Below the pieces are notes generated by a model. That model worked only from the letters and a program-made list of their open reading frames with translations. It searched no databases and was not told the DNA's origin. A stretch of DNA of 64,000 nt from a virus: positions 1 through 64,000 of the IMG/VR virus record IMGVR_UViG_3300002835_000063; one strand, written 5' to 3'. Position 1 is the stretch's first letter. Each line of letters opens with the position of its first letter. The position numbers and the translations under genes were made by a program. Below, piece by piece: positions 1,872 to 53,798 of this stretch.

Positions 1872-2111
1872 TTATGGCTTGCCGGAGAATCGTCCGTTGC
1901 TATCTCTTTTGATACCTTTAATCGCCATGAAGTATGAATTAACGCTTTTTAGAGTTTGTTGATTAACCCACACTGCAAAGGCCTCGTCTCGATCTACATA
2001 CCCGGCTTGAGGCATAAATAGTTTTCCAGACTCGATCCAGTTATAGACGGTCTTAACTGAAACCCCCAAATCGGTTGCAACTATTGGGATCTTTGTCCAG
2101 TTAGTTTTCAT
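1872..2111 (-). CDS. Excisionase/MerR-like HTH DNA-binding protein
   Basis: VATDLGVSVKTVYNWIESGKL HTH signature. Confidence 0.75.
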   Translation of the reverse strand: MKTNWTKIPIVATDLGVSVKTVYNWIESGKLFMPQAGYVDRDEAFAVWVNQQTLKSVNSYFMAIKGIKRDSNGRFSGKP

Positions 2112-2805
2112 GTTTATCCATATCTAAAATTCGAGCCTCGGTGATTCTGTATTGGTCTGGCGAGATGTCATTGTATACAACTTTTCGACCCAACCGGAGT
2201 GTTGCCACGGCAGCTGTTCCAGTTCCCCCAAATATATCTGCAACTGTATCCCCCTCCTTAGAAAACGCAAGTATAAATCTTTCGTAAAGTTCTTCGGGGA
2301 TAGTGCTTCCGGTAAACCCGATGGAGTCATATCTAGATAGGCTATGGGGATCCAAAGGTAGCTTGACCACATACTCCCTCTTGGCTGGATCGACATAGAA
2401 AGACTCTTTGTAGAAGTGGATTATGAGTCCCATCTTTTCGTAGTTCAAAGATTTTAAAAATTCAGTGGAGGAAAAGTCCCAGACAAAAATTTGACCAACG
2501 GTTAGGTCTGTCTGGCTTTCGACTAAGTTGCACAATCTTGGGACTATGTTATATTGATTTTGAAGCATCATGAATATTGATCCGTTAGGGGCCAGTGCTT
2601 CCCCCATTCGAAGAACAGAAACTAAAAGTCTGGCTAGGTAGTCATCTACAGATTCGACCTTGTTGATGTGATCTTCGGGATCTCCTCCATACTCGTCTAG
2701 GGCAGAGCCAAGATATGAAGGGTTCACAAAAAATAGATTGACGCTCTCAGGATCTAAAAATTTGTCAGTAGCATCTAAGCAATAAAGCTTTACGTCGTCT
2801 CTCAC
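2101..2805 (-). CDS. SAM-dependent methyltransferase, N4/N6 DNA MTase-like (beta order)
   Basis: NPSY at the motif IV position; GDTVADIFGGTGT SAM-binding motif near the C-terminus. Confidence 0.75.
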   Translation of the reverse strand: MRDDVKLYCLDATDKFLDPESVNLFFVNPSYLGSALDEYGGDPEDHINKVESVDDYLARLLVSVLRMGEALAPNGSIFMMLQNQYNIVPRLCNLVESQTDLTVGQIFVWDFSSTEFLKSLNYEKMGLIIHFYKESFYVDPAKREYVVKLPLDPHSLSRYDSIGFTGSTIPEELYERFILAFSKEGDTVADIFGGTGTAAVATLRLGRKVVYNDISPDQYRITEARILDMDKHEN

Positions 2806-2814
2806 TGATCTCCC

Positions 2815-2856
2815 TAAAAAGAATACCGCCCCAACACTTTACCATGTTGAGGCGGT
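2815..2856 (-). terminator. Intrinsic terminator
   Basis: CCGCCUCAACA/UGUUGGGGCGG stem followed by UAUUCUUUUU. Confidence 0.7.
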
Positions 2857-2973
2857 TTTCCTAACCCTAGCTTGGGTTATTTTGTTTCCCTCTCCCGGAA
2901 ACAAACTTGGTCCTGCGATGTGTCCATTCTTTCGGCCCGTTCAAGACCTTCTTCCTAAAACACACCGCAGGGT
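2815..2973 (-). ncRNA. Candidate structured small RNA or leader RNA
   Basis: TAGAAT -10 at 2980-2985; four consecutive stems; ends in a terminator-like hairpin plus U run. Confidence 0.55.
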
Positions 2974-2985
2974 AAAAACATTCTA

Positions 2986-4044
2986 CTACACGTTCCCTCG
3001 GAATGAGTACCACATTGAATTCCTTATCCTGTCTATCAAATCCGGGGCATATCTGTTGTGAGGTATGCCTACATATTCAAAGCCTAATGCATGGCTGACA
3101 ATTGAGTACTGACTGTGATAGGTCTGAGTTTGTACCTCGTCTTCCCCCAGGTTAGTAATTAGCGGAGTGACTAACTCAACAACGCTAGATTCTTCTGGCA
3201 TAAAGAACATATTGAGTAAACCAGAACTGGTAGAAGATGCCAAAACCGTTGCTTGGCTAATTGTCTCTATTTGATGTTTAAAATCAGTAAACTCTTTCTC
3301 TGGACAGATTATCTCAAAATCTGCGGTGTCCCTCAAAAAATTCTCTACTTTGTCTTCAAAGAAAATACGAGCGGCCAGTCCAGGGAAATCTATGTGTGGG
3401 TTGTCTTTAACCCCCAGATAATCCTCGATGCTAATAATCTGTCGGTCTTGGGTGGATCTTCTAGAGAGATATATTTTTTTATTGGTCGATGGTTTTATGT
3501 CTGGCAAAGACCTACAAAATTTTCGGACCCTTTTTATGTCTGATACATTAAAGAAAATTGAATCAAAGATTTGAATGTTTTTTGCTGGTATTAATAAAAT
3601 CTCTAACGGGCCTAAAGTTTTTTGATATTTTAACTTAATCAAATTTACCTGGCCGGTGGACTCTAGGGCATCAAGAAAATAATCAATTACTGTTGCACCC
3701 GTCCCCATTAAACTTTGGTCCCCCGTTGAATCAAGTTTTGATTTTGGTTGGACTACAAGATTTAGGCCTACCCAACCGGATCTTATTTCTATCTGCTTGG
3801 TAACTTCAGACAGTGTCTCTAGCATAAAGTGCCCCATCTGTCTGTAAAAAGGAATATAGACTTTAAGCTCGTCTGTCATCAATGGGGAGTCAGATTTAGG
3901 CACTAAATAAGAAAGATATTCTTTTGGGATTTTATCTTTATGCTCAAAAAATCCACCAAAATTTTGATCGAGGAAGAGGAGATAGCCCTCTTTTTGGATG
4001 GGAGGGTTATTGACCTCGGGAGTAAAAGACTGTAATAACGGCAC
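2986..4044 (-). CDS. Glycosyltransferase family 61 (DUF563-like)
   Basis: GHFMLE, KKIYLSRR and SSGLLNMFFM...VVEL motifs. Confidence 0.7.
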   Translation of the reverse strand: MPLLQSFTPEVNNPPIQKEGYLLFLDQNFGGFFEHKDKIPKEYLSYLVPKSDSPLMTDELKVYIPFYRQMGHFMLETLSEVTKQIEIRSGWVGLNLVVQPKSKLDSTGDQSLMGTGATVIDYFLDALESTGQVNLIKLKYQKTLGPLEILLIPAKNIQIFDSIFFNVSDIKRVRKFCRSLPDIKPSTNKKIYLSRRSTQDRQIISIEDYLGVKDNPHIDFPGLAARIFFEDKVENFLRDTADFEIICPEKEFTDFKHQIETISQATVLASSTSSGLLNMFFMPEESSVVELVTPLITNLGEDEVQTQTYHSQYSIVSHALGFEYVGIPHNRYAPDLIDRIRNSMWYSFRGNV

Positions 4045-17051: not shown

Positions 17052-18487
17052 TAGCTTATGATCTCCCTGCCATAATATTTGGTCCATTCTTTCACATCAC
17101 TAGCGTCGTTTATTATAGGCTGCCCTTTAATATTCAAACTAGTGTTTAATAGCACTGGTACACCGGTAAGGCTATACCACTTCTGTAATACCTGATATAG
17201 ACCGGGATGCTGCCGGGCAGTTACAGTCTGGACCCTGGCAGTTCCGTCGGCGTGGACCACACTAGGAATTAACTCTGGCTTAAGACATCTAGGCGTGTAC
17301 TGCATGTAAGGCGAAGTGTAGTTCATGTCAAACCACTCGCTAGCATGTTCCTCCATAACCACCGGAGCAAACGGTCTAAACAACTCCCGCTTCTTGATTA
17401 GGTTTACCTTGTCTTTAATATCAGGATCTCTCGGATCCGCCAAGATACTTCGGTTTCCCAATGCCCTCGGACCATACTCAGCTCTACCAGATGCTACTGG
17501 CGCTATCTTGTCGACAATAAGGGCGTTTAGTATTTTCTCTACTGGATAGTCTCCCCCAACCCCATGACCTAAGTACGGCCCCTGCCAATTCAAATGCTTG
17601 CCATACAAAGCTGCAGCAGCCCCTAAAGCCGACCCAGCGTCCCCTGGATTAGGCATGATCCAAACATTTTTAAATATGTTCCGCAGCAGGGTGTTAGCTT
17701 TGCTATTCAAAGCACAGCCGCCCATAAAGACTAGATTCTTTTTTCTAGTAATACTTTTTGCAAACCCCATGAATTCCATGAGACGATCCTCAAATACTTT
17801 TTGTACTGCAGCTGCTAAATCAAATCTAGCCTGACCTTCTACCGGCTCTTTCCAGTCAATAATGCCAGAGTGGAAGTTATATTTTTGACGATCAAAGACT
17901 GGAAAATATTGTCTGACTTTTTCATAATATCTATTGGCATCACCATAGGCTGCCATACCCATCATGATGTACTCTTCTTCATTTGGCTTAAGACCAATTA
18001 GTTTGGTGAAAGCAGAGTAAAAAAGACCGAAGCTAACTGGATATTTTTGCTCCCAGACTAGGTTAATCTTGTCGCCCTCCCCCACCCACACAGTGGAAGT
18101 CTGGAATTCTCCGATGGCGTCTAGCACGACAATAAGGGCGTCTGCCATGTTGGACGTGTAATACCCAGCAGCAGCATGAGACTGGTGGTGCTTAAAATCT
18201 TTTACTGGAATTCCCCTAAGCAATCGGCTCGACTTAAAGTATGGTTTTCCTCCCCCCAACCCACCATGCCTAGCAATCCTTAGCTTCTTTAGCCAGTAGT
18301 CCTCGTAGTAGGCAATCTTGTCGGGGGTCCCATAAGTAAGGGCATCTGCTATAAGAGCATCGTTAGTGAACCAGTCGTTCTTTTCTTTGCTGTAACGCTC
18401 GGCATGACCAGCAAATAGAACTTCGCCATTTTCAATAAGACAAACTGCAGCATCGTGCGTTGTCTCATTTATGCCAAGAATTTTCAT
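17051..18487 (-). CDS. Carbamoyltransferase (NodU/CmcH family)
   Basis: HDAA, HHQSHAA, DAIGE, EYGPRALGNRSIL, RELFRPFAP, LNTSLN. Confidence 0.95.
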   Translation of the reverse strand: MKILGINETTHDAAVCLIENGEVLFAGHAERYSKEKNDWFTNDALIADALTYGTPDKIAYYEDYWLKKLRIARHGGLGGGKPYFKSSRLLRGIPVKDFKHHQSHAAAGYYTSNMADALIVVLDAIGEFQTSTVWVGEGDKINLVWEQKYPVSFGLFYSAFTKLIGLKPNEEEYIMMGMAAYGDANRYYEKVRQYFPVFDRQKYNFHSGIIDWKEPVEGQARFDLAAAVQKVFEDRLMEFMGFAKSITRKKNLVFMGGCALNSKANTLLRNIFKNVWIMPNPGDAGSALGAAAALYGKHLNWQGPYLGHGVGGDYPVEKILNALIVDKIAPVASGRAEYGPRALGNRSILADPRDPDIKDKVNLIKKRELFRPFAPVVMEEHASEWFDMNYTSPYMQYTPRCLKPELIPSVVHADGTARVQTVTARQHPGLYQVLQKWYSLTGVPVLLNTSLNIKGQPIINDASDVKEWTKYYGREIIS

Positions 18488-18505
18488 TTTGGCTACTAAC
18501 TCAAG

Positions 18506-18700
18506 CTATTTAACTGGTCTGGCGTCAATGATGAAGTTGTACATGTACTTGGTTTCCATCATTGTTGTCGATTCAGCAATATCCCCTGACCCAAAAGTCT
18601 GGTGAAACTTTCTTAAAATCTTTAGAATTCGTTCCCGCTCAGTGGCTACACCTTTTTCAAATGCAGCCATTTCCTCTGGGGTTCCTTCAAACTTAGCCAT
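18506..18700 (-). CDS. Hypothetical protein
   Basis: FEKGVATERERI motif; AAGGAG RBS before the ATG at 18700. Confidence 0.6.
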   Translation of the reverse strand: MAKFEGTPEEMAAFEKGVATERERILKILRKFHQTFGSGDIAESTTMMETKYMYNFIIDARPVK

Positions 18701-18971
18701 TAAATATCTCCTTAACGCAGCACCCGTCGCACCCATGAACAGTATTTAAAGCAATATCGTCTGGGTCCGGATGTCCAACACCGTGAGGGCACATTCTTTC
18801 CATAATATGGCGATCTTGCCTCCACCTCTGAGGAAATCCTAACATATGATGATCAGAGGGGTTATGGAGAGTGCAGTAGTCATTCTTGCACTTATTACTT
18901 GCATGGACGTTTACAATTACATGATTGTAGTCATCTACCCAGGAATTTTTGCCAAGATATTTAGCGGACAT
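18693..18971 (-). CDS. Cys/His-rich hypothetical phage protein
   Basis: CTLHNPSDH...ERMCPHGVGHPDPD...HGCDGCC. Confidence 0.7.
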   Translation of the reverse strand: MSAKYLGKNSWVDDYNHVIVNVHASNKCKNDYCTLHNPSDHHMLGFPQRWRQDRHIMERMCPHGVGHPDPDDIALNTVHGCDGCCVKEIFNG

Positions 18972-19249
18972 TATGCGCTGTGAAGCTCTCCCATAGTCCA
19001 AACAACTTCTTCATATCCATCTCGAGAGATGATTCTAAAGCGAGCGCCGTCTGGAATCTCTACGATAGCTAGAGTTGATCCGCCATCGCCACGGTTGTCT
19101 CCAGCCTCAAACGAAGCAATAAGACGCTCGTCAGCTCGGTTTACGTCTGACACCTTCATGTATGGAACAGTCTGCAGCTCCGGGAAAAGAGTCTTCTGAC
19201 GCTCAGACAAAGTAAACCCGTGCGAGCAGTGGTTAACTAATAGTTTCAT
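18971..19249 (-). CDS. Hypothetical phage protein
   Basis: LAIVEIPDG...DGYEEV; AGGAG RBS. Confidence 0.7.
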   Translation of the reverse strand: MKLLVNHCSHGFTLSERQKTLFPELQTVPYMKVSDVNRADERLIASFEAGDNRGDGGSTLAIVEIPDGARFRIISRDGYEEVVWTMGELHSA

Positions 19250-19403
19250 TTTTTCTCCTGTTTTTTAGCTTCTGCCACATAAAGCTTAGTGCTAATAGCA
19301 TCTGGCAATTTCCGAACTATTATATCCAAGTCGTTTTTGTTGTCGCTCTTCCAGAGAGGAGAATTCTCTTTTTTAGTGTAAACGATCCAAGTAGTCACAG
19401 TGG

Positions 19404-19631
19404 TTACCTATTTAGTTTTAACTTTCCGCTTTTTAGGTCTGCTTCAATTAACGCCCAGAGTTCTGCTCCGTTAAGAGTATCTACCTTTTTCTTTTTTAGA
19501 ATGACATTAGGCCTATCGCAGTTCCTTGGATACAAAGCCTTGTGATAGTGATACTGACAAAGCCGCTTTGCTTTAATCTGTTTCTCGCAGCCATCAAACT
19601 CGCAATGGCCTTCTCTTGTCATTATTGGCAT
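19404..19631 (-). CDS. Small Zn-finger protein
   Basis: CEFDGC...LCQYHY. Confidence 0.6.
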   Translation of the reverse strand: MPIMTREGHCEFDGCEKQIKAKRLCQYHYHKALYPRNCDRPNVILKKKKVDTLNGAELWALIEADLKSGKLKLNR

Positions 19632-19973
19632 TTATTCTCCGTTACTGACATCCCTAAACCGGCTATTTGGAAATAACTCCCTCATTCTAGCCCTTCGCTT
19701 TTTGGCCACTTCAGGATCTTCAACGTAAGGTTCAATAGGGGCGTCTAAATCTTCGTACTCTTTCTCAATCCTCCGGCGAGCTCCTCCGATATCATCCCCG
19801 ATTTCTTCATGCAAATCTAAGTGTGACAAAGCTTCCCGGGGAGTTTTTAGAGAGGTAAACCCAAAAATCTCGTCCCCATCAGGTAGTGCCAAAGAGCAAC
19901 CACAGCACTCAATAAATCCACCCACGTGCTCGTAGATGTAAACATCCGAGCTGCCAAATCTCTCAAAACTCAT
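19632..19973 (-). CDS. Hypothetical phage protein
   Basis: MSFERFGSSDVYIY...ECCGCSL. Confidence 0.7.
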   Translation of the reverse strand: MSFERFGSSDVYIYEHVGGFIECCGCSLALPDGDEIFGFTSLKTPREALSHLDLHEEIGDDIGGARRRIEKEYEDLDAPIEPYVEDPEVAKKRRARMRELFPNSRFRDVSNGE

Positions 19974-20124
19974 GCGGTTGCCTTTCTAATAACTTCCAAC
20001 ACTAACTGCTCGGCCATTTCCTCGCTAAACCCCTGGGCTATAAGCTGATTTCTCATACCGCCCATAATCTCACCATACTGAGTGACGGCGTCTATCATCT
20101 TTGAAATATCTTCTGGATTCACGT

Positions 20125-20433
20125 TTATCTCCTACTAAACACTACTTCAAAACCAAAGTCTTCAACAGTCTGTATTGCATCCTTTAGTCTGCCAACTTCT
20201 TTTTCAGCTACAGATACCCCGTACTCGTAGCCCTCTTGAAACTTTCTAAGAGCCCATCGATCTAGCTCAGGGCTGGTGCAACTTTGCACTTTATAACTGT
20301 AGACAGTCCCGCAGTCGCCGCACTGCCAATCTTCCTTATTCACTTTTGCTTTCTTTTTATTGTGCTGACGCTTTCTGTATTCACCAATTTTTATGGCCTC
20401 TTCAAGTTCATTAAAAGATTCGTGACGCTTCAT
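20125..20433 (-). CDS. Hypothetical protein
   Basis: WQCGDCG; coupled start. Confidence 0.6.
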   Translation of the reverse strand: MKRHESFNELEEAIKIGEYRKRQHNKKKAKVNKEDWQCGDCGTVYSYKVQSCTSPELDRWALRKFQEGYEYGVSVAEKEVGRLKDAIQTVEDFGFEVVFSRR

Positions 20434-20672
20434 TACAGCTCTCCCCTAATTCTTTCAATTGTTAGCAGGTGTCTTTCAGTCAACGTCTCTTTACTGGCTA
20501 ATGCAAACCAAGCAGTTTTATCTATAAAACATTTTGGGCAAGTGCGGGGAGACACAATTCCCCAAGCACCCATCCTCGGCGGGAAGTCCCAGCCCCGACT
20601 GAACCCCTCCTCAGATGTCAGCTCAGCTTCGGTGTCGCACACCTCGCACCAGTGCAAAATTTTTTCACTCAT
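20433..20672 (-). CDS. Zn-ribbon hypothetical protein
   Basis: CEVC...CPKC. Confidence 0.65.
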   Translation of the reverse strand: MSEKILHWCEVCDTEAELTSEEGFSRGWDFPPRMGAWGIVSPRTCPKCFIDKTAWFALASKETLTERHLLTIERIRGEL

Positions 20673-20837
20673 TTATTAGTAACTTCTTCCTACCCAAAAC
20701 GTATATACGTGCCTACCCCAAAAGAAGTCTACGCCTTTTCTTTTAGGGTGCCACTCAAAGCATATCCCGTAATGCTTCTCTACTGCAAATCGACTTGGGG
20801 GGTAATGTCTAAAATTTATGCGAAACATAAATTTATT

Positions 20838-20966
20838 TTATCTATATTTTGCGCTAAATAGTTGATAGAACAATGCACCAATAACCAACATCACTGGCAG
20901 CATTCCAACTAATATCACAACTTGAACTACGGTCCAATCGATCTTTTTCCATAAATACTTAATCAT
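20838..20966 (-). CDS. 42 aa single-TM protein
   Basis: Hand translation MIKYLWKKIDWTVVQVVILVGML... Confidence 0.5.
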   Translation of the reverse strand: MIKYLWKKIDWTVVQVVILVGMLPVMLVIGALFYQLFSAKYR

Positions 20967-21073
20967 TACTTCCTCTTTCCCCATCTTTCAATCGCAAACC
21001 AAATACCTAAAATTGCAAAAGCAACATAGTAGGCCCAGGCAGATCCGAATAGTTCCCGCATAAGGGCGTCCAT
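20966..21073 (-). CDS. 35 aa single-TM protein
   Basis: Hand translation MDALMRELFGSAWAYYVAFAILGIWF... Confidence 0.5.
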   Translation of the reverse strand: MDALMRELFGSAWAYYVAFAILGIWFAIERWGKRK

Positions 21074-21223
21074 TATTTTTCGTCCCTGTCAGGAATCTCA
21101 TTGGTGATTTTGAAAAAAGCTAAATCGTTGGCTGCTTCTTTTGCTAGCTTTCCGCCCATGTCGGTTAGCATCTTTGCTACCTCGATCTTTGCAAAGATCT
21201 CAGCTAGCTGATCAGTGGAATAT

Positions 21224-21568
21224 TTATTCTTCTTGTCCATCAGTCTCTACCATTTTCCTTATTAGGTGGATCGTCATTTTGGCGTCCTCCTCAGAATCTA
21301 GCAGGTTCTCCTCAAACTTGTCAAGTATTCCTAAAAATCTTTTTTCAGCCATCTTCTCTCCCAGTTCATACCAGGATTCTCCAGCTGCATCAGTAAGGGC
21401 GTCTATCGCATTAAGCGCCTCTTGCTTCTTAAGGATGGCCTTGGCAATGCTGACTTCAAAGATTTCCATATCCCCCTCCCCAAAGGTGGAAAACGAAGCC
21501 CCCCTAAAGCCCGAAGGCTCCTTCAAGGGATCTTCTACATACTCAAAGTCATTTAGTGCCATGCCCAC
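21224..21568 (-). CDS. Hypothetical acidic protein
   Basis: 114 aa ORF. Confidence 0.6.
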   Translation of the reverse strand: MGMALNDFEYVEDPLKEPSGFRGASFSTFGEGDMEIFEVSIAKAILKKQEALNAIDALTDAAGESWYELGEKMAEKRFLGILDKFEENLLDSEEDAKMTIHLIRKMVETDGQEE

Positions 21569-21582
21569 AGCCTAGCACAGGT

Positions 21583-23067
21583 TTACCGGGATTTTGCTCT
21601 AGTAAATTCGTTATAAAAACTTTCGGCAGCATGCCTGTGCCAGTGAGCCCCAAAGTGGGGGTGGCCAAGAGCAGAGTCGGTACCTGCAAAATATTCATCA
21701 GGAAATTCTTTTTTAATTTCTGCATGGCACAAAGTTCCGCAGGTGCATTCAACCCCCGGATTAATGTGACTAGATAAGCACAGCTCAAAATCAGCATAGT
21801 TGTCAAAAAATATTTCTTTAATACTATTTTCTGATAGCTTAATTCTGGAATAGTCAAAATTGTGATCGTATAAATTAAAAAATTTCTCAAATCTTGTGTC
21901 TGGCTCAAGCTGAGAGTCTATAACTAATCCGTTAAATACAGGATCCCAAGTGGCCCAAAATAATTTTATGTCCGCTGCCCTACAGTATTGCTCTAAATAT
22001 CTAATGCTTTTCATTGCGTCATATATTGCTAAATCATCGGAAAAAACTTTTCTATAGTCATATGGAAGTTTAATTAATTTATTATTTTTTTCTTTTTCTA
22101 CTCCCAAATATACAGTTTGAAAAAATTTTTTATTCGATTCACTACTTTCTTTTTCTATATTTGTAGGAACTTTATTTTTGTTATTTAATTTTTCTGCATA
22201 AAACACACCATCTACCGGCACATAAAATCTTTTATAGTCAGGGAAAAGACAAAAAAGATACTCCGGGTTCCCATATGTTTCTACATATTTAAAAATAGAA
22301 TTTACTATTTGACCAGTAGAAGCACCAGACTTACCTATATTTGTATGATCTAAATTTAAAAGTTTGGCCACCTGAGTCGCCCAAATGTTTTCTATAGAGA
22401 CTCCCACTCCGTATGTTACCGAGCAGCCAGCAAATAATAGGGGGGTTTTTTCTAATTCTTTTTTTGATCTAAACCCGTTCGAATTATTTTCATATATTCT
22501 TTTTGGATCATCTTCAATAATTTTTTTTGAGTTGTATTCTGTCTCAGAATAAAAAGTTTTTCTTGCATTCAAAGTTAATTTGTAGTTACTTTTTTCACTA
22601 AACACCGAACTGTCTATTTGTTCTTTAATTTTTTCATTAAATTTTAATTTTCTGAGTTTAGTTATTCTATCTAAAATTGGCTCCATAAACTCATCAACAG
22701 AGTCTAAGCTTGAACATTTATATAAAACAAAATTATTATTTAAATTAAGTTGATCGTTAATTTCTTGCGAAAAGTCATCGTCTTTCTCCGAACAATCAAA
22801 AATAACATCGTGCCCCATATATCCACTTGAATTTAACCACTCGTGGTCGTCACCAATAGTTATGCTTAATTTTTCATTATTGAAATATTTATTGTTTATT
22901 TTCCAAAAGTTTTGGTTATTTAATTGAGCTTCTGGAAAGTCTTTTAACTTTTTTACATAGACTATGTGTATTCTTATGTCTTTCCCGTAGCCAGGTAGAC
23001 AAGTAAATTTGTCTACTACAGCTTTACCTATAGGACCATACCCAAATATACAAGCACTTAAAATCAT
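21583..23067 (-). CDS. Rossmann-like N-terminus fused to an SGNH-hydrolase-like domain
   Basis: IFGYGPIG; NSNGFRS...FAGCSVTYGVG...NIGKSGAS...HPHFGAHWH. Confidence 0.6.
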   Translation of the reverse strand: MILSACIFGYGPIGKAVVDKFTCLPGYGKDIRIHIVYVKKLKDFPEAQLNNQNFWKINNKYFNNEKLSITIGDDHEWLNSSGYMGHDVIFDCSEKDDDFSQEINDQLNLNNNFVLYKCSSLDSVDEFMEPILDRITKLRKLKFNEKIKEQIDSSVFSEKSNYKLTLNARKTFYSETEYNSKKIIEDDPKRIYENNSNGFRSKKELEKTPLLFAGCSVTYGVGVSIENIWATQVAKLLNLDHTNIGKSGASTGQIVNSIFKYVETYGNPEYLFCLFPDYKRFYVPVDGVFYAEKLNNKNKVPTNIEKESSESNKKFFQTVYLGVEKEKNNKLIKLPYDYRKVFSDDLAIYDAMKSIRYLEQYCRAADIKLFWATWDPVFNGLVIDSQLEPDTRFEKFFNLYDHNFDYSRIKLSENSIKEIFFDNYADFELCLSSHINPGVECTCGTLCHAEIKKEFPDEYFAGTDSALGHPHFGAHWHRHAAESFYNEFTRAKSR

Positions 23068-23069
23068 AA

Positions 23070-23690
23070 TTAATTTTTATCATTAACGTCAAAGAAATTA
23101 AATCCCGAGACATTTCCTTTATTTGCCCAAAATAAAACAATGTTTTTTCTATTTCCAGCTGTCACTTCGTGAACTCCATGCTGATGTTCGACGTCTCCTT
23201 TAAATAGCAACAAATCCCCGGCCCGAGGGGAATAAACAAAATTTAGTTCTGGAAAATATATATCTCCACCCTCAAAGTCTTGCCCTTGAGTATTTAAATA
23301 AATAAGGCCACTCCACTCCAGCTCTTGAGGAATTTCATTGTCGTGAATGGGGGTGCCATCTAATCTAGTTGCATCTGCATGTAATGGATTAAAAGCACCC
23401 GTCAAAAGATTTTGATAGTTTGCTTGACAAAGATCTAGCTCGCATCCAAAAACTTCTTCTGCATACTTTTTTGTTTGCTCAAACAAAGCCCCCAAATTTT
23501 TGTTTACTGGATCGTAGTCTCCAGGTATGACTCCAGTCTCTTCATTTATTTTTGACGCAGCTAAAGAGGACTCATACCCCAAAGCATTTATAATTTTGCC
23601 CTGCCCGGGGTAGCTGTGAAGATCTAAAAACTCTATATATTTTTTACAGTCTTCTTCACTTATGTAGCGTTCTTTAACTAGTACAGTCAT
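23070..23690 (-). CDS. 2OG-Fe(II) oxygenase (prolyl-hydroxylase-like)
   Basis: HAD...YLN...FEGG...HGV...R. Confidence 0.88.
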   Translation of the reverse strand: MTVLVKERYISEEDCKKYIEFLDLHSYPGQGKIINALGYESSLAASKINEETGVIPGDYDPVNKNLGALFEQTKKYAEEVFGCELDLCQANYQNLLTGAFNPLHADATRLDGTPIHDNEIPQELEWSGLIYLNTQGQDFEGGDIYFPELNFVYSPRAGDLLLFKGDVEHQHGVHEVTAGNRKNIVLFWANKGNVSGFNFFDVNDKN

Positions 23691-23694
23691 GCCA

Positions 23695-24315
23695 CTAAGT
23701 ATAATCTACGTCAAACCTATTACCATCTGACACATTGCCACGCTTTGCCCAGAAGAATACTAGGTTTTTTCTTTCGCCTTCCAACACTGTTCGAACTTCG
23801 TGCCTGTGCTCCATGTCACCACGGAAAATCACTAAGTCTCCGGCTTTAGGGAAATACTCTAAGTCTTGCTTTTCAAAGTAGAGAGTTCCCCCCTCAAAGT
23901 CTTTACCATTGGTATTCAGATACAAAAGACCGCTCCACTCGACTTCCTCGGGGGATCCGTCTTTAGCGAGAGGGCTGCCGTCATCTTTCGTGGTATCTGA
24001 GTGCATAGGATTTGAACTACCTTTAGGTAGCATTTGATAGTTTGCATTACATAAATCAAGCTCTTCCCCAAAAACATCTTCGGCTTTAGCTTTTATTTTT
24101 TCGAATAGTTCGCCTATTTCAAAGTTGATTTCATTTTGTTCCCCAGGTATTACACCGGTATCTTTGCCAATTTTAGAAGCAACTAGCGAGGACGGATAGC
24201 CTAAAGCATTCATAATTTGAGTACGTTCACTCAGTGTGGCCTTAGGCTCTAAAAAGCTAAGATATCTTTTGCAATCTTCTTCACTAATAAATTGTTCAAC
24301 TATTGTGATCGGCAT
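23695..24315 (-). CDS. 2OG-Fe(II) oxygenase; tandem paralog of 23070-23690
   Basis: HSD...YLN...FEGG...HEV...R; both 206 aa with shared NALGY and EWSGL. Confidence 0.88.
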   Translation of the reverse strand: MPITIVEQFISEEDCKRYLSFLEPKATLSERTQIMNALGYPSSLVASKIGKDTGVIPGEQNEINFEIGELFEKIKAKAEDVFGEELDLCNANYQMLPKGSSNPMHSDTTKDDGSPLAKDGSPEEVEWSGLLYLNTNGKDFEGGTLYFEKQDLEYFPKAGDLVIFRGDMEHRHEVRTVLEGERKNLVFFWAKRGNVSDGNRFDVDYT

Positions 24316-24324
24316 AGTAAAATT

Positions 24325-24498
24325 TTACAGGTCTAGCTTATATACGACTCTACCGATAGCGTGCCAAGGAAAAAGCGACAGCCGATCAGAGTTGCCACCT
24401 ATATGCAGATACAGTCCCCAGGACGTTTCCTCTGCAATCATGCCCTCAAACACCATGCCATCAACCATCATTACTGATGCCCATTTATTCTTGTTCAT
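24325..24498 (-). CDS. Hypothetical 57 aa protein
   Basis: Hand translation MNKNKWASVMMVDGMVFEG... Confidence 0.5.
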   Translation of the reverse strand: MNKNKWASVMMVDGMVFEGMIAEETSWGLYLHIGGNSDRLSLFPWHAIGRVVYKLDL

Positions 24499-24682
24499 TT
24501 AAATCACGTTCTTTCCAAAGTCTTTCAATTAATTCAGCCGTATCAAATCTTCTTACTGCTCTTGTATTGATCCCCGGTTGGGACGCCACTTGTACTATTT
24601 CTAGTCCTTCAGCTTTGTATCGGTGCAGCGCCTCCATGATTCGTTTGCGCTCAGCCTGAACTCCACGCTCAAACTCATCCAT
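24485..24682 (-). CDS. Hypothetical protein
   Basis: FERGVQAERKRI motif. Confidence 0.55.
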   Translation of the reverse strand: MDEFERGVQAERKRIMEALHRYKAEGLEIVQVASQPGINTRAVRRFDTAELIERLWKERDLNEQE

Positions 24683-24833
24683 CTTCGCCTCCATGACACT
24701 TGCAAGCACACTTGTACCTAGGAATCCTAACTACACACGTATCATGATGTCCAGTGCTGCACCACCCAAACATCGCTGTTCGCTCTTCGTTTTCTTCAAC
24801 AATAGGGGCGTTTACTTTTTTGTCTTTAGCCAT
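24675..24833 (-). CDS. 52 aa Cys/His-rich protein
   Basis: Hand translation ...FGWCSTGHHDTC...CACKCH. Confidence 0.55.
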   Translation of the reverse strand: MAKDKKVNAPIVEENEERTAMFGWCSTGHHDTCVVRIPRYKCACKCHGGEDG

Positions 24834-24834
24834 T

Positions 24835-25035
24835 TCAATCTTTTCCCCACTGGATGTTTAGCCACATCCGCTCGTGGAGGTAGTACAGCACAAAGTTGAT
24901 CACATTAGATATTAAAGTCAAAGATGCGGCAAATGTCAAGCTGCCAGTTAAAAAGTACCCAATTCCAAAAGTACTCACGATAGCCACAACCCGCCAAGTC
25001 AGCGACTTAGCCCAAGATCTTTTCTTACTTACCAT
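24835..25035 (-). CDS. DUF2061-like small membrane protein
   Basis: RSWAKSLTWR...YYLHERMW. Confidence 0.8.
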   Translation of the reverse strand: MVSKKRSWAKSLTWRVVAIVSTFGIGYFLTGSLTFAASLTLISNVINFVLYYLHERMWLNIQWGKD

Positions 25036-25723
25036 CTTGCAAGTCTTTAATTCTTACTTGGGAAATAAGCAGCTTATCTTCAGAAACATCATTATAGACA
25101 AACTTCCTACCCAACTGCAAAGCAACCACCCCGACAGTCCCACATCCAGCAAAAATGTCTGCAACAACATCTCCCGGTTCGGAGTAGTTTTTTATCATTT
25201 CTCGATATACACCTTCCGGCGCAGCCCCGACTGTTGAATAGTTTGTGTGATAATCCTTAAGTTCTTCGGTAGCCTCTGACCACGAGTTAGTAAGAACAAA
25301 TGGTCCCTGCGGGCGATCCCCCGCGCTCCAAGGTTTTTTGGTAAAGTGTGCAAATAAAACAGTAGAGTTGCCGCCCATATCAAATTTAGATGAGTAGTCC
25401 CATAGTCTTATGCTTTGGAGTTGTAGTTTAGTTTTATCAAATATTTTTGGCAAAATCCCAAGGCCCAGCCTGGTATTCTCAAGAGCAATAAACATATGGC
25501 CGTCTTCTTTTAAAGCAGCTTCCATGTGAAGAAAAGAAAGCAGCAGTCTTTCTAGATATTGATCTAGGCTTTCGGCATTCTGCATTTGCTTGGTTGGATC
25601 ACCACCATTTAGCTCTAATTCAGTCATATAGTAGGGCGGATGGCCAATAAATAAATCTACAGAAGACTCCTCAAGAAATTTTTCTGAAGCATCTTTACAA
25701 TAAAAAGTTACACTGTTTTTCAT
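25025..25723 (-). CDS. SAM-dependent methyltransferase, DNA MTase-like; paralog of 2101-2805
   Basis: HPPY; GDVVADIFAGCGT. Confidence 0.75.
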   Translation of the reverse strand: MKNSVTFYCKDASEKFLEESSVDLFIGHPPYYMTELELNGGDPTKQMQNAESLDQYLERLLLSFLHMEAALKEDGHMFIALENTRLGLGILPKIFDKTKLQLQSIRLWDYSSKFDMGGNSTVLFAHFTKKPWSAGDRPQGPFVLTNSWSEATEELKDYHTNYSTVGAAPEGVYREMIKNYSEPGDVVADIFAGCGTVGVVALQLGRKFVYNDVSEDKLLISQVRIKDLQDGK

Positions 25724-25737
25724 ATATTCACGCTATC

Positions 25738-26487
25738 TTATTTGCCAGTAAAATTTTTCCAAGGATAGTTACCGCCCGGATACATATCCATGTAGTAAAT
25801 ATTGCCAATTAAGAAAAATTCTTTTTTCACGGATTTAGGTCCCCCACCTAGTCTGTAGCCTAAGGTGTACAGCCCAGTTGTTTCGTATTTGCCAGAAAAT
25901 GCTGTTTTTAATGACATTGAATACACGGCGTCAGCATTGTAGGGGTGCAGCCACTTTCTTCCGGTTCTTCTTATAAAAGCCGTTCTAAAGAAAAAGCAGC
26001 TCGTGTCAATTAAAAATCCGGTCCCCCCTGAGTTCCAAATAGGCCAAAGACCTAGCGACTCACAATTATCATCTGTTACGTAGGTCCTATCTTTTTCGTA
26101 GATAGATCTCAATGAAAAAGCTAGTTCTAGATTTTCATTATTGTCAAGTTTGGCAGCCAGACTTGAAATATGATTTACTTCATACCAGTTGTCTTGATCT
26201 AAAAAAGCAATGTATTCGCTATTTACAAGCGCAGGTACAGCCGAGTAAACCCTATGTCCATTCCAACCATTGGCTCCAGTGTTGTATGGGAGCACCATAA
26301 CAGTTGGATTCGTTCCAGACCTTTCAACCATTTCAATAACCTTAGGCAAAAACTCCTGACCATCGACAACTACTAAGTGATCGATTGGCCCATCGTAGTC
26401 TTGGTTTTCTACACTAATAAGGGCGTCTACTAATTCTGGTGCGCCGGTTGTAGGAGTTATCACGGTAACGCTTCTACCTAAGCTCAT
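25738..26487 (-). CDS. Glycosyltransferase family 2
   Basis: VTVITPT, LVVVDG, YIAFLDQD. Confidence 0.85.
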   Translation of the reverse strand: MSLGRSVTVITPTTGAPELVDALISVENQDYDGPIDHLVVVDGQEFLPKVIEMVERSGTNPTVMVLPYNTGANGWNGHRVYSAVPALVNSEYIAFLDQDNWYEVNHISSLAAKLDNNENLELAFSLRSIYEKDRTYVTDDNCESLGLWPIWNSGGTGFLIDTSCFFFRTAFIRRTGRKWLHPYNADAVYSMSLKTAFSGKYETTGLYTLGYRLGGGPKSVKKEFFLIGNIYYMDMYPGGNYPWKNFTGK

Positions 26488-27142
26488 AGATAATCTCCTT
26501 GTGGTGCTTCACTTTAATTCTGGTGTCCAAGTAAATAGTAAACCCATTACGCCTTGCATTCATGCAGAACGAATAGTCCTCACCAATGTTCAAATCAAAA
26601 TCCAAGTGCGCCCACCTAATTCTCTCCATCAAGAACCACGGCCTGTCACACCTCTCAAACACACCACTCTTCATTGCCACAAAGCCGAATCCGACGCCGA
26701 ATACTTCAACAATAGGGGCGTCTATCAAAATGAAGTCTTGCTCTCGCACAACGGTTGGCTGACCAATCCCGTCAAACATTGCAACTGCCACGCGTCCATC
26801 TGGTGCAGTTTGGTACATGCCACCGACAATGTCTAGCTCGTGCTCCCACAGTGCTTTGAACTGCTCGATGCCCCAGCTGATGTCAGAATCAATCCAGATG
26901 ACTTTGTCATAGGTAAACTGCCCGCTGCCAAGCTCTCGCGTTTCCCAGTTTGGATTGTAGGCGTCCAGCGCAGTCAACTCTCTGGTTGTAGATATCAACG
27001 ACCCAGACTTGTTTAGCCACTTGTAAGTCAGTCCCTGCTCGCCTAGCCAGCGCAAAGTTTCGACAAGGCTAGTTACATACCCCTGGTGCAGCTCTTTACC
27101 AGGCGTAGCGATCACTACGTTGTAGTGCGGCTTATCGCTCAT
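26474..27142 (-). CDS. GT-A fold glycosyltransferase
   Basis: WIDSDI, GFGFV, GEDYSFC, HHK. Confidence 0.75.
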   Translation of the reverse strand: MSDKPHYNVVIATPGKELHQGYVTSLVETLRWLGEQGLTYKWLNKSGSLISTTRELTALDAYNPNWETRELGSGQFTYDKVIWIDSDISWGIEQFKALWEHELDIVGGMYQTAPDGRVAVAMFDGIGQPTVVREQDFILIDAPIVEVFGVGFGFVAMKSGVFERCDRPWFLMERIRWAHLDFDLNIGEDYSFCMNARRNGFTIYLDTRIKVKHHKEIIYELR

Positions 27143-27938
27143 GATACATTCTCCACAACTGCTTCCATTTGCTGTCCTGAGTTCCTGACAGCCATGGTTT
27201 GCTCTTACCAGCAAAGTGTACAACCACAGGGTCTAATACCGGAAGAGATTTATAAATATTAGCTAAATAGTTAAAATTAATGCTCAGCGCTGACCAGTTA
27301 TTTTTAAAGACAACATTAAAGACATCCTGGTCTGCGTACCCAAGCCAATCATCAAAGTTCATAGAAACATCCATCAAAACGTCTTCTATGTTGTTTTCCC
27401 TGAAATAGTCCAGGTTAATCACCATGACCCCGCTATTGAAGATTGACGTATCCCTAAATGTCTCGTTTTCTGGAAAGCTTAGTTGGATCTCAGGGAACGC
27501 AGCAATAGGGGCGTCTCCTAACTTGTAATCAAGCAGCGGCTGGATATCTCTGGCAATTATGCAGTCAACGTCTATGTAAACGGCTTTTCGATAATCCACG
27601 CACACGCTGCCGACAAAGTATCGATATAGAGATGTTCCGGTGTATTGCTTATTTTTATACATCTTGCCCACAAAGCCGCTTTCCTCGTGCGGGCGAACAT
27701 TCTCGGGATAGGTAAACTCAACGTCTAGATTGGGGAAAACAAAGTCAGCAGCCCTGTAGTGAATGTCTTCTGGAGACAAGACAAAGACCTTTAGCTTGTT
27801 AGCTCCGCTATAGTTGGCGCTCACGCTCTTTAATAGCGTCTTGGCGTAGTCAACAAAATAGACATCCGTTGAGATAACCAAGCAAGTGTCTTTAGTTGGG
27901 ACGCAAGTTACGCAGTCTTTTTGTTTAATCCTCGGCAT
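27132..27938 (-). CDS. Glycosyltransferase family 8
   Basis: YIDVD, FNSGVMVINL, DQDVFN, HFAGKSKPW. Confidence 0.92.
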   Translation of the reverse strand: MPRIKQKDCVTCVPTKDTCLVISTDVYFVDYAKTLLKSVSANYSGANKLKVFVLSPEDIHYRAADFVFPNLDVEFTYPENVRPHEESGFVGKMYKNKQYTGTSLYRYFVGSVCVDYRKAVYIDVDCIIARDIQPLLDYKLGDAPIAAFPEIQLSFPENETFRDTSIFNSGVMVINLDYFRENNIEDVLMDVSMNFDDWLGYADQDVFNVVFKNNWSALSINFNYLANIYKSLPVLDPVVVHFAGKSKPWLSGTQDSKWKQLWRMYHER

Positions 27939-28272
27939 CTTCTAGCTCAGCCTTTTTAGCCTTCATCTTTGCTTTGTGCTCTGCAGCAAGGTTCCCAACA
28001 GTTTGATTTTTGTAGTGCACCCGCTTAATTCGATCAAGCTTAAAGCTTCGCCACTGTTCGGCTCCCTTGGGGCCGCCCCAGACATCAATCCATTCTGCAC
28101 CGTTAGTGTTTTTAACAAATCTAATAAATCGGTAGCGCCCACGCTCCCCGATGATTTTTAATTCGGTTCCAGGAGTAATGTTGCGGCCATGGACCTGGAT
28201 TTCAGTTTTATATTCCCACTCAGCGTTTGGCCGAGGTATTAGAGGCTCTGACGCCTTGTTTTTTCTCCCCAC
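27925..28272 (-). CDS. Hypothetical protein (possible SH3-like beta domain)
   Basis: PGTELKIIGERGRYRF...WIDVWGG. Confidence 0.6.
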   Translation of the reverse strand: MGRKNKASEPLIPRPNAEWEYKTEIQVHGRNITPGTELKIIGERGRYRFIRFVKNTNGAEWIDVWGGPKGAEQWRSFKLDRIKRVHYKNQTVGNLAAEHKAKMKAKKAELEDAED

Positions 28273-28624
28273 TAGGTTCCTCTTCTAGTCGCAACCACTC
28301 GACAACCTCAGGATTGTCTTTAATAAACGATAGCATAGGTGCTTCCCAAATACCAATAAAGTGGTGTTCCCACACATCATAAGGATCTTTACCGTCGGGC
28401 GTCTTTTGGCCGCTGCCATAAACCATCCCAATGGCGTGAATGATTTCGTGGAGCAGCGTCTGTTGTTTTTTAGTGAATGCAATATTGGCGTCCAGTACTA
28501 TCAAGTTGCCCTGGTCTAGCGTGTAGCCATAAGAGTTGTCATTGAGGGTTCCGTCTTTTTTGACGTTGCGTTCCTCAATGTGAAAAACCTGGGCGCCTAT
28601 GCGGACTTTTTTGGGGACAGACAT
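28220..28624 (-). CDS. HExxH metallopeptidase-like protein
   Basis: TLLHEIIHAI. Confidence 0.7.
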   Translation of the reverse strand: MSVPKKVRIGAQVFHIEERNVKKDGTLNDNSYGYTLDQGNLIVLDANIAFTKKQQTLLHEIIHAIGMVYGSGQKTPDGKDPYDVWEHHFIGIWEAPMLSFIKDNPEVVEWLRLEEEPSGEKKQGVRASNTSAKR

Positions 28625-28642
28625 GGCTCTATGTTATCTGAT

Positions 28643-29551
28643 TTAGCCGGATAGTAGTAGTACGGCATTTAGGGCAAATGCCACAGCCCTATTTTGGTCG
28701 TCTAAGTGCAGGGCAGGGGTTCCGGCAATCATAAGCCCGGCCAGTCTTTTGGCGTCATATTTAGTCAAACCAAAGGTTTCTAGCATTTGATTAAAAGCAC
28801 TCTGGGAGCGAGTTGACCAGTCATGCCCGATCACACGAAGCCCGTACCCACTATCAGACCTAGTCAGCTCATAGTAGCCCTCAATAATTTTGTCATACCA
28901 GCTGTAGGAGCTCTGACAAAGTTTGGCAATATCGTATGCCCTCGGGCCGTAAATTGATGGCCCATCAAATCCACCCCGAGGGTCAATAAGTTTTATGGTT
29001 TGCAAATCTTTACTAATCATAATGTTCGAGAAGCAGAAATCACCATGAAGCACGGCTATTTCCGGGGGCGTCTTAAATAATACGCCAGAGTTTTCAATTA
29101 ATAAGCTACCCAAACTTCTGTGCTTTTTGCCATTTAATATGCATCCCTCAAAGAATATGTTCTTAAGTTCTTTATTTTCTATTTCGTATATTCGATCAAG
29201 TGCTTTTTTAATAAATAACCTATAAAGAGTGGCATAGTCAGTCTTCTGCCCAGTTTCATTAAACTTACAATAAACTTCATTTATTGAAAAAAAGATCTGC
29301 GCCCAATCCTTAGCTGAAAGTTCTTTACTGTTTACTAGTTCAGTTAAAGGTAGGAGGTCTAGATATTCCATTTCATACCAAGAAAAGTTTTCTGAATATC
29401 TGTAAAGCCTAGGCATGAGCTTTTTAATTTGATCAGGAGAGTTAACGTAGAATAGAATCTCGCCTTCAAGCTTGTCTATTTTAGTGGAAGACTTTCTTAC
29501 AACTTCACGCTCTAAGTCAATATCAATAGTGTTAAAGTTCCTAGGCTTCAT
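28643..29551 (-). CDS. APH/choline-kinase-like phosphotransferase
   Basis: YEMEY, HGDFCFSNI, LIDPRG, YDIAKL. Confidence 0.85.
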   Translation of the reverse strand: MKPRNFNTIDIDLEREVVRKSSTKIDKLEGEILFYVNSPDQIKKLMPRLYRYSENFSWYEMEYLDLLPLTELVNSKELSAKDWAQIFFSINEVYCKFNETGQKTDYATLYRLFIKKALDRIYEIENKELKNIFFEGCILNGKKHRSLGSLLIENSGVLFKTPPEIAVLHGDFCFSNIMISKDLQTIKLIDPRGGFDGPSIYGPRAYDIAKLCQSSYSWYDKIIEGYYELTRSDSGYGLRVIGHDWSTRSQSAFNQMLETFGLTKYDAKRLAGLMIAGTPALHLDDQNRAVAFALNAVLLLSG

Positions 29552-30224
29552 TTGTAGGTGCCTCGACAATAGTGGCGTCTACTATGTTTTTAACACTCGA
29601 AGCGTACCAGCTGCCCCCACGGGCGGAAGGAATTCCCTGTTGGTTTAAACTATCTGCAATTGATTGATATGAGTGACCAAGACTTCTTTTAATTTTTATT
29701 TGTTCCGCCACTGCCGGCGAAATTATTTGCTTAGGGCCAATGTCCTTACCCCAAACCACCCCTTGCTCCCGTCGGTCCTTGTGAATGTCCTTGGCTCGCT
29801 CGGCAATTATGCCTCGCTCCATCTCAGCCAGTGCCGACATAATCGTGACTACAAACCGACCCTGATATGTAGATGTATCAAGATTCAGGTCCAGCATGAT
29901 CAGACGCCAACCATTACGACCAGCTCGATCCACAATGTCCAGGAAGTCCTTGGTTGACCTAGCCAACCTATCAATCCTGGTTACAATCAGCGCTCCCGCT
30001 TTTTCTTCGTCTAACTGATGGAGGGCGTCTATTAACTTTGGTCGGCCCGAAACATTCTTGCCGGAGCGGCCCTCTTCCAGCATTACTTCCCACTCAGTAA
30101 AGCCATACATTTGCGCAGCTTGGATTAGTTGGCGTTCCTGCGCTCCTAGTGACACACCGTCATCAACCTGCATCTGCGTTGACACACGAGCGTATAAAAG
30201 TGCTTTACCAGTAGGGGCGTCCAT
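29541..30224 (-). CDS. Serine recombinase (resolvase/invertase family)
   Basis: YARVST, SGK...RPKL, RIDRLAR, AEMER; IADSLNQQG tail. Confidence 0.93.
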   Translation of the reverse strand: MDAPTGKALLYARVSTQMQVDDGVSLGAQERQLIQAAQMYGFTEWEVMLEEGRSGKNVSGRPKLIDALHQLDEEKAGALIVTRIDRLARSTKDFLDIVDRAGRNGWRLIMLDLNLDTSTYQGRFVVTIMSALAEMERGIIAERAKDIHKDRREQGVVWGKDIGPKQIISPAVAEQIKIKRSLGHSYQSIADSLNQQGIPSARGGSWYASSVKNIVDATIVEAPTNEA

Positions 30225-37826: not shown

Positions 37827-38156
37827 TTACCTGATACTAGGCCCTCGGTGTTTTACTGGATATCTACGATAATTGCGCTTTCTAATGAGCTTTCGTTCAT
37901 GTTCTGTTGTTCCGCCCCAAACCCCAAGCTCGTTATTTTTTAGGGCATACTCCAAACACTCGCGAATTAGTGGACATTCTTGGCATACTTTTTTGGCCGA
38001 TTCTAGGTTTTGGTATTTGGCTGTAACCATTCCAAATCCCATGTCTATATCCATGGGAAAAAATATTTCGGGATCTGTTTGAGCACAAGCTGGATCGTCT
38101 TTTAAAACAAAAAGTGGGACGGTAATGCTTCTGGTAAGACGATTCTTTTGTGTCAT
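37827..38156 (-). CDS. whiB: WhiB family transcription factor
   Basis: CAQTDPEIFF...CQECP...C...GVWGG. Confidence 0.95.
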   Translation of the reverse strand: MTQKNRLTRSITVPLFVLKDDPACAQTDPEIFFPMDIDMGFGMVTAKYQNLESAKKVCQECPLIRECLEYALKNNELGVWGGTTEHERKLIRKRNYRRYPVKHRGPSIR

Positions 38157-53083: not shown

Positions 53084-53767
53084 ATGAGAAACGACTACAC
53101 AAATAACAACATTACTCCATATATGTCAATAACCCCTTCAGGATTTTTTGGCGATTCTGCAGAAAATATTGTTGCTATTGACGACTTTATGACCGAAGAA
53201 GAATTAACCTATCTAAACAATTTTGCTAGGAAAAATACCATGTGGGACGCAACCGAGACTCACTATAACGAAGATGGTACAGTGATTTATGACTCTTCTT
53301 ACTGGGATCATCGAGTTGCAACGGCTCCCATATTAAAAGAAGCTGATATAAAAGTAGTTGAACTAATATCTGATATGCAAGATAGATTAAAGAAAAAAGT
53401 TGATACTTTTTTCGCAGTGGATGCTCATCCCACAAGCCCGGCGCTAGTTAGGTGGCTACCCGGACAAAGACAGCAACCGCACGCAGATAAAGAACTACAT
53501 GAGGGCGAGGGCAGGGGGAAGCCAAATGACTTCCCATACTATGACATAGCTGGCCTTTTTTATATAAACGATGACTATGAGGGAGGAGAGCTATATTTCC
53601 CTAACCAAGGTATTCAATTTAAACCAAAAGCCGGATCAGCTTACTTTTTTCCAGGAGACATGAATTATATCCACGGAGTCACAGAAATCAAGTCTGGAAT
53701 TAGATATGTTTGCCCATTTTTCTGGACAATAAAAGAGCACACTGGCAACCACAAACCAAATTTATAG
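53084..53767 (+). CDS. 2OG-Fe(II) oxygenase
   Basis: HAD...YINDDYEGGEL...HGV...RY. Confidence 0.9.
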   Translation: MRNDYTNNNITPYMSITPSGFFGDSAENIVAIDDFMTEEELTYLNNFARKNTMWDATETHYNEDGTVIYDSSYWDHRVATAPILKEADIKVVELISDMQDRLKKKVDTFFAVDAHPTSPALVRWLPGQRQQPHADKELHEGEGRGKPNDFPYYDIAGLFYINDDYEGGELYFPNQGIQFKPKAGSAYFFPGDMNYIHGVTEIKSGIRYVCPFFWTIKEHTGNHKPNL

Positions 53768-53798
53768 TAGAATTATCATCAACAAGCAAGGATCTAAA

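Follow-up and report, generated by a model that had tools for sequence, protein, structure and literature searches.

A structured, terminator-ended RNA family at a fixed genomic position in one lineage of uncultured phages

We describe an RNA element, predicted to be ~158 nt long and encoded on the minus strand of an uncultured virus (IMG/VR record IMGVR_UViG_3300002835_000063, whose positions 1 to 64,000 were analysed and are hereafter called the window), that belongs to a genuine RNA family uncatalogued in Rfam: a phage leader or small RNA, promoter-proximal and terminator-ended, with 12 distinct homologues in related uncultured phages. The structure of the element, the conservation of this structure, its genomic position and its independence from the methylase gene that follows it in the window are all directly observed in the sequences compared below. 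As to function, we tentatively favour, at somewhat less than an even chance, a terminated leader RNA whose downstream genes would be transcribed only by read-through, governed by a factor that probably reads the purine loops in a nut- or put-like manner.

In the window, the element occupies a 180-nt minus-strand gap that runs from the stop codon of a GT61-type glycosyltransferase ORF (2986-4044) to the GTG of a methylase ORF (2101-2805). The parts of the locus, in the order of transcription, are as follows:

2985-2980, minus strand: candidate -10-like box TAGAAT, without a -35 element, adjoining the TAG stop of the glycosyltransferase ORF upstream
2973-2816, minus strand: predicted transcript, ~158 nt, from folding and a match of covariance model R1 at 2816-2973 (138 bits)
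2971-2912, minus strand: P1 domain, made up of an outer stem, a purine-rich bubble containing GGAAGAA and an inner hairpin (2948-2934)
2971-2958 with 2925-2912, minus strand: P1 outer stem of 14 bp, CCUGCGGUGUGUUU/GGACACAUCGCAGG
inside P1, minus strand: bubble UAGGAAGAA/GAAAGAAU and hairpin GGUCU-UGAAC-GGGCC
2905-2881, minus strand: P2 hairpin UUUGUUUCC-GGGAGAG-GGAAACAAA, 9 bp, with its heptaloop at 2896-2890
2879-2862, minus strand: P3 hairpin UAACCC-AAGCUA-GGGUUA, 6 bp
2856-2816, minus strand: P4 intrinsic terminator, a 13-bp G+C-rich stem (2856-2825) and U tract AUUCUUUUU (2824-2816)
2815-2803, minus strand: Shine-Dalgarno AGGGAG and GTG start of the first gene downstream
2101-2805, minus strand: beta-class N6/N4 DNA methyltransferase, 234 aa, motif IV NPSY (Pfam PF01555, 3.2e-16)
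1872-2111, minus strand: HTH_17/excisionase-like small gene, overlapping the end of the methylase gene
638-1609: gene of a conserved 323-aa protein, downstream of the RNA

The 5' end of the transcript was provisionally placed at A2973, 7 nt 3' of the -10 box, and its 3' end at the end of the U tract, from which the GTG of the methylase ORF at 2805 is 10 nt away in the 3' direction. In a terminator scan, P4 fitted the definition of an intrinsic terminator, with a 13-bp stem holding 7 G-C pairs and a 6-nt loop, followed by ATTCTTTTT. No tRNA or tmRNA was found in the window.

Relatives of the element were collected through the proteins encoded beside it. Searching protein databases with the methylase brought up eight homologues (62-92% identity), and a profile built from these found one IMG/VR contig and five metagenome contigs, one of the five being identical to the window; all of these contigs have the RNA element directly upstream of the methylase. 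The 323-aa protein, used as a handle on the wider phage lineage, led to 47 related IMG/VR loci, among which the methylase was present in one (the contig already found) and absent from 46, including six with the RNA. A covariance model trained on four sequences and then run for further copies of the RNA added six contigs without methylase (L016, L017, L057, L046, L058 and L018), and the pattern GGGAGAG..CRTGNTANAGTG....GGCG, searched over 2.9 million IMG/VR contigs, returned the same seven contigs and nothing else. The RNA family is rare: it is restricted to a single lineage, a small clade of uncultured phages of freshwater actinobacteria, and keeps the same genomic position throughout. It is single-copy in the 108.9-kb virus record and in two complete genomes, and no credible further copies or other GGGAGAG hairpins were found in the genome.

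The initial annotation had recognised no known family here, and none was matched in Rfam 15, whether for the entire window (gathering score), for the locus (2600-3200, E <= 10) or for five related loci. Likewise, blastn of the locus against cultured phages gave no matches, single-protein IMG/VR searches with the methylase or the glycosyltransferase found nothing, and covariance model R1, run on 151 sampled Actinomycetota genomes, returned just terminator-like matches in one genome. Two motif searches yielded candidates that we rejected: AGGAAGAAGG..CCGAAAGAA in IMG/VR had two matches, both by chance and inside coding sequence, and GGGAGAGGGAAA..GTTGGGGCGG in species genomes had four chance matches in high-GC genomes, unscored by the covariance model. 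The methylase homologues themselves form a compact and distinct group, the next closest homologues having at most 37% identity, and their motif IV, NPSY, is invariant in nine homologues, as opposed to the usual (D/N/S)PP(Y/F).

The initial annotation had proposed a structured minus-strand RNA at this site, and every element that it listed was found where it had been placed. The minus strand folded with an MFE of -75 kcal/mol, compared with -46.6 +/- 3.8 kcal/mol in 200 shuffles (z -7.5), none of which was as good. The plus strand of the same segment folded to -52 kcal/mol only, and this weaker fold bears out the earlier statement that the G-U pairs work on the minus strand alone. Moreover, all nine members that bear P1, when folded singly, gave the same four hairpins (P1-P4), with 5-13 G-U pairs per member and a sense strand more stable than the antisense by 12-30 kcal/mol. 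Other ideas about the fold were tried and discarded: an ANTAR-type dual hexaloop, whose loop positions misfit; a helix closing the -10 box on the U tract, which is inconsistent in register and competes with a GGAA/UUCU extension of P4; and a TATTCT internal promoter in the P4 3' arm, which is not conserved in L008, L016, L017 and L057.

Covariation across the collected homologues, on which the initial annotation had made its RNA depend, was strong. Pairs were counted on a model-fitted alignment of seven sequences; plain MAFFT had offset the P1 3' arm by one column, with a larger error in L004, so P1 was counted on the model-fitted alignment and double-checked by hand and by single-sequence folds. 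Standard pairs filled 96.9% of cells, and 17 of the 44 pairs had changed on both sides, against 7.5 +/- 1.8 in shuffles, none of 500 reaching 17; controls in which the partner was slid by 1-3 columns gave 0-3 such changes. P1 on its own had changes on both sides in 12 of its 16 pairs, with 99% of cells paired (seven sequences). Since a model-fitted alignment leans towards the model, the single-sequence folds and a model-free alignment of P4 were added as checks, and in the latter (plain MAFFT, 12 sequences) 97.4% of cells were paired and four pairs had changed on both sides.

Over these drifting stems, particular loop bases are fixed. The P2 loop GGGAGAG, which resembles the Shine-Dalgarno of downstream genes (GGGAG/GGAGAG), is invariant in all 12 members while its stems are wholly divergent (UUUGUUUCC, CUUUUUCC, UUUUUACUAC, UUUUUGUCUCUGC and GCGCAAAC). 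The P3 stem changes from UAACCC/GGGUUA to CCUGU/ACAGG in L004 and L007 with the loop AGCUA kept (A(A)GCUA overall), and the P4 apex CAUG-KUADA-GUG is conserved even in the most distant members, L046, L058 and L018. In P1, the outer stem measures 8-16 bp across the family and the interior is variable; GGAAGAA is single-stranded in every member that bears P1, and GGGAA is usually unpaired. The 5' domain is replaced in L018, L046 and L058, leaving only P2 and P4 universal. In L018 (4330-4400) and L030 (3610-3700), another shared structured segment, CUUCGG..GGCGGUCAAGCUGAAACCG..GUCGGA..UCCGAUG, stands instead of P1 upstream of the GGGAGAG hairpin and may represent a second form of this RNA's 5' domain. 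By sequence comparison, drifting stems with fixed loops on one strand only are the pattern of a functional RNA, unlike that of a DNA site or a coding sequence.

The genomic position of the RNA is equally constant. In every homologue the next gene starts 8-17 nt past the U tract, and the RNA is always directly upstream of the HTH operon, whatever gene stands 5' of it, be it that of a 90-aa protein with a Lys-rich tail (the p90 homologue), that of a 95-aa hydrophobic, Lys-rich membrane protein or the GT61 glycosyltransferase gene; in related loci, small basic Lys-rich proteins are encoded just 5' of the RNA. The operon holds the HTH gene and that of the 323-aa protein and, in relatives, also genes of a 2OG oxygenase and an endolysin. 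No conserved promoter was found between P4 and the next gene, nor any other strong minus-strand terminator downstream within 1-2800. In L029, a related phage, a plain terminator is all that stands in place of the RNA, where the Lys-rich gene is followed by the HTH gene. In DSL-LC01, the closest named phage, no copy of the RNA was found; there, three tRNA genes (Thr, Pro and Arg; L062 3326-4074) upstream of the 323-aa homologue replace it.

In the six members that are free of methylase, a few nucleotides separate the terminator from the Shine-Dalgarno and start of the HTH_17 gene. The methylase lies precisely at this junction of U tract and HTH gene, without a promoter of its own, and, judged by this comparison, is an inserted gene and no partner of the RNA. 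The GT61 glycosyltransferase is a second inserted gene, on the 5' side of the RNA, and is missing at this position in L006, L008 and L009. Upstream of it on the minus strand lie a 12-bp terminator (4096-4069) and GTAGAAT (4057-4051), the latter 6 nt before the GTG at 4044, a spacing from which a leaderless mRNA would follow. The gene has the appearance of a cassette inserted as a self-contained unit.

The initial annotation had also assigned the RNA its own -10 box and terminator, and both candidate signals were conserved in all nine homologues that bear P1. TAGAAT or TATAAT lies 5-11 nt before P1 in each of the nine, and the box is kept whichever of the three unrelated upstream genes (90-aa, 95-aa or GT61) is present; no -35 element is conserved among the members. 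The 9-mer at the start of the RNA, TAGTAGAAT, recurs on the plus strand at 53765-53773 and 61515-61523, at or just past a stop codon and 25-40 nt before the next gene start, and is a candidate phage promoter motif. Of the window's five GTAGAAT sites, four have this placement. A different 15-nt motif, CAATAGGGGCGTCTA-like and present in seven copies over 12 kb of a minus-strand gene block (window 17512-29590; repeat families D13 and D15), may serve regulation or recombination.

A promoter with a -10 box only would fit an actinobacterial host, as such promoters, leaderless mRNAs and leaderless GTG starts are normal and common in Actinobacteria. Two WhiB-family genes were found (window 37890-38096 and G000 72395-72586, both on the minus strand; 70.6 and 66.2 bits), and homologues of the 323-aa protein are confined to Microbacterium phages and DSL-LC01, a lake phage, which are the closest named relatives. 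From these genes and relatives, the host is almost certainly an actinobacterium; DSL-LC01 is itself predicted to infect Actinomycetia (PMC10611076). In the 1.8-Mb actinobacterium G007, bidirectional terminators GGAAAACCACCCCAGC..GCUGGGGUGGUUUUCC (L069/L070) closely resemble P4 with its GGAA/UUCU extension, and this resemblance may be a clue to the host lineage.

We favour a gate that acts in cis on transcription, since what stays constant is the succession of -10 box, displayed purine loops, strong terminator and, directly after it, a ribosome-binding site. Under this proposal, transcription would start at the foot of P1 from the -10-only promoter TAGAAT, and the nascent RNA would form three hairpins displaying GGAAGAA and GGGAA (P1), GGGAGAG (P2) and AGCUA (P3). 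The polymerase would then meet the strong P4 terminator, making a discrete ~158-nt RNA the default product, unless a phage or host factor, or RNA polymerase itself, read the conserved loops and thereby set the share of transcription passing P4. Read-through of P4 would extend the transcript into the operon, comprising the inserted methylase, the HTH gene, the gene of the 323-aa protein and, in relatives, that of the endolysin. Because the next gene follows the U tract so closely, with no conserved promoter and no further strong terminator, its transcription would come only via P4 read-through. That the promoter is active, where the transcript begins and ends, that read-through is required and what any factor might be are points that we infer from the sequence signals. 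A bolder version of the proposal, which we consider rather unlikely, is a new class of RNA-based gate, in which the GGGAGAG, GGGAA and AGCUA loops would recruit a factor or bind the polymerase, override P4 and so time the HTH-p323-endolysin module together with the inserted genes.

Several findings count against a gate. We identified neither an antiterminator protein nor a boxA-like element, each genome has a single copy of the RNA, in contrast to the nutL/nutR and putL/putR pairs, and the P1 domain is replaced in L018, L046 and L058. A gate also obliges us to postulate a regulated factor, since terminator resistance that needed none would leave P4 purposeless. In addition, serial hairpins, exposed conserved loops, a promoter and a terminator equally fit a trans-acting phage small RNA or decoy, the main rival reading, which we hold to be possible but doubtful. 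In that case the ~158-nt RNA would itself be the product and its position before the operon incidental, and GGGAGAG, GGGAA and GGAAGAA would pair with pyrimidine-rich targets or mimic a Shine-Dalgarno, titrating 30S subunits or an RNA-binding protein. The -10 box and strong terminator, which together would delimit a discrete transcript, the clustering of conserved nucleotides in loops and bulges while the stems drift, and the near-identity of the P2 loop to the downstream Shine-Dalgarno all suit a small RNA, which nevertheless leaves unexplained the terminator abutting the next ribosome-binding site (12 of 12 members) and the syntenic fixation. A possible target was also considered, as GGGAAGAA is complementary to ~25 UUCUUCCC repeats in the FN3-(PFFP)n-Hint mRNA (48584-49960); these repeats are found in the complete genome G002 (28 matches) but are absent from the complete genome G001 (0), both of which have the RNA, so this target was rejected and the complementarity is probably a by-product of Pro-Phe repeat coding. 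The encoded 458-aa protein (48584-49960, plus strand; also 63135-63246) has FN3-like N-terminal domains and ~25 Pro-Phe-Phe-Pro repeats with a 12-nt period, TTCTTCCC, right after which a C-terminal Hint/intein-like domain begins with Cys. A passive structure, namely a compound terminator, insulator or 3'-end stabiliser for the upstream genes whose loops go unrecognised, appears quite improbable: it accords with the plain terminator of L029 and with the likeness of P4 to ordinary terminators of a small actinobacterial genome, yet a stabiliser needs none of the invariance of GGGAGAG, AGCUA, GGAAGAA and the P4 apex over covarying stems, and the -10 box at a fixed distance from P1 in three upstream contexts speaks against it as well.

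The remaining alternatives, most of them raised in the initial annotation, fared worse. A metabolite riboswitch or attenuator (e.g., for SAM or SAH) serving the methyltransferase was suggested by the layout of promoter, structured leader, terminator and gene, with a SAM-dependent enzyme downstream in the window, but we now regard it as very unlikely. Half of the members, six of 12, lack the methylase yet retain the RNA before the HTH gene, so that there is no consistent association with a SAM gene and SAM sensing is unsupported. Furthermore, no Rfam riboswitch or known aptamer matched, even at E <= 10, the hairpins follow one another and form no multi-helix junction, P1 does not keep its architecture across the family, and competing terminator/antiterminator pairing is absent from the MFE and centroid folds of the nine members that bear P1. 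The suggested 6S-like open-promoter mimic, binding RNA polymerase, seems scarcely credible: the roughly symmetric 9 x 8 purine bubble in a long stem that prompted it turned out to be peculiar to the window's copy, with a simple apical loop in L006, L008 and L009 and a 7-nt 3' bulge in L004, L016, L017 and L057, and the stem is far shorter than the 6S rod, with no match to 6S (RF00013) or Ms1 in Rfam. A DNA-level signal (pac/cos, att or operator) or small-peptide gene with no RNA involved we rate as highly improbable. The purine motifs are indeed repeated, and the 323-aa protein bears the name small terminase in one Microbacterium phage and has a weak match (E 0.24) to structures of small terminases, but the large terminase is 25-29 kb away, which makes a packaging site a weak reading, and a DNA signal does not sit with 5-13 G-U pairs per member and compensatory changes that preserve pairing on one strand only. 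The 16-codon ORF noted earlier does exist in the window, but it is not conserved among relatives (8 codons in L006 and L009, no ATG in L004), which ruled out a peptide.

To our knowledge, almost nothing is known about gene regulation in the abundant phages of freshwater Actinobacteria, and the family offers, at a specific control point of freshwater actinobacterial phage genomes, a covarying RNA motif with good support. If the cis-acting gate is correct, it would extend RNA-mediated antitermination to a new phage and host group and would supply a compact promoter-RNA-terminator part for actinobacterial genetic tools. In the bolder version given above, the RNA would be the first described case, among phages of Actinobacteria, of processive antitermination through a nut- or put-like element. 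The insertion slot behind a terminated leader also suggests how inserted genes, such as the DNA methylase, could gain expression control. If the RNA instead acts in trans, it would be a new phage small RNA with loops that mimic a Shine-Dalgarno.

Among known systems, bacterial 6S and mycobacterial Ms1 RNAs are similar in size and share the stem-bubble-stem of the window copy; they differ in that the bubble is not family-wide, Rfam gives no match and four serial hairpins take the place of one long rod. The actinobacterial 6C RNA and the CsrB/RsmZ decoys are likewise small terminated RNAs with a short motif repeated in several hairpin loops. However, the motifs here are purine-rich (GGGAG, GGGAA), as opposed to C-rich in 6C, and here a phage encodes the element, which is tied to a single syntenic location; as far as we know, CsrA is absent from Actinobacteria.

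The lambda nut sites (boxA/boxB, with N) and HK022 put also place hairpins between a promoter and a terminator that blocks the next genes, and the order of a nut site is found here in all members: the -10 box and hairpins come first, then the terminator, and the next gene starts after another 8-17 nt. As in nut and put, the structure is conserved and particular loop bases are fixed. The short stems and purine-rich loops recall lambda boxB, whose GNRA-like pentaloop GGGAA/GGGA resembles, although no boxA (CGCUCUUUA-like) is present 5' of a hairpin in the 158-nt RNA. HK022 put is a promoter-proximal two-hairpin RNA that needs no protein factors for its action in cis on RNA polymerase, and its architecture is loosely similar to that of the present RNA, for which such an activity is putative. 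The differences are one copy per genome rather than two, no N-like protein identified, three hairpins plus a terminator with a conserved apex, an actinobacterial host and no sequence similarity. Finally, the 6S RNA of lambda PR'-tR' is a constitutive product of 194 nt that is lengthened only when Q antiterminates; here, too, a candidate promoter is followed ~150-200 nt on by a strong terminator, and a short RNA would head an operon that includes lysis genes. Q, however, acts via a DNA site, and the structure of the lambda leader RNA is neither conserved nor required, whereas in the family described here RNA structure and loops alike are under clear selection.
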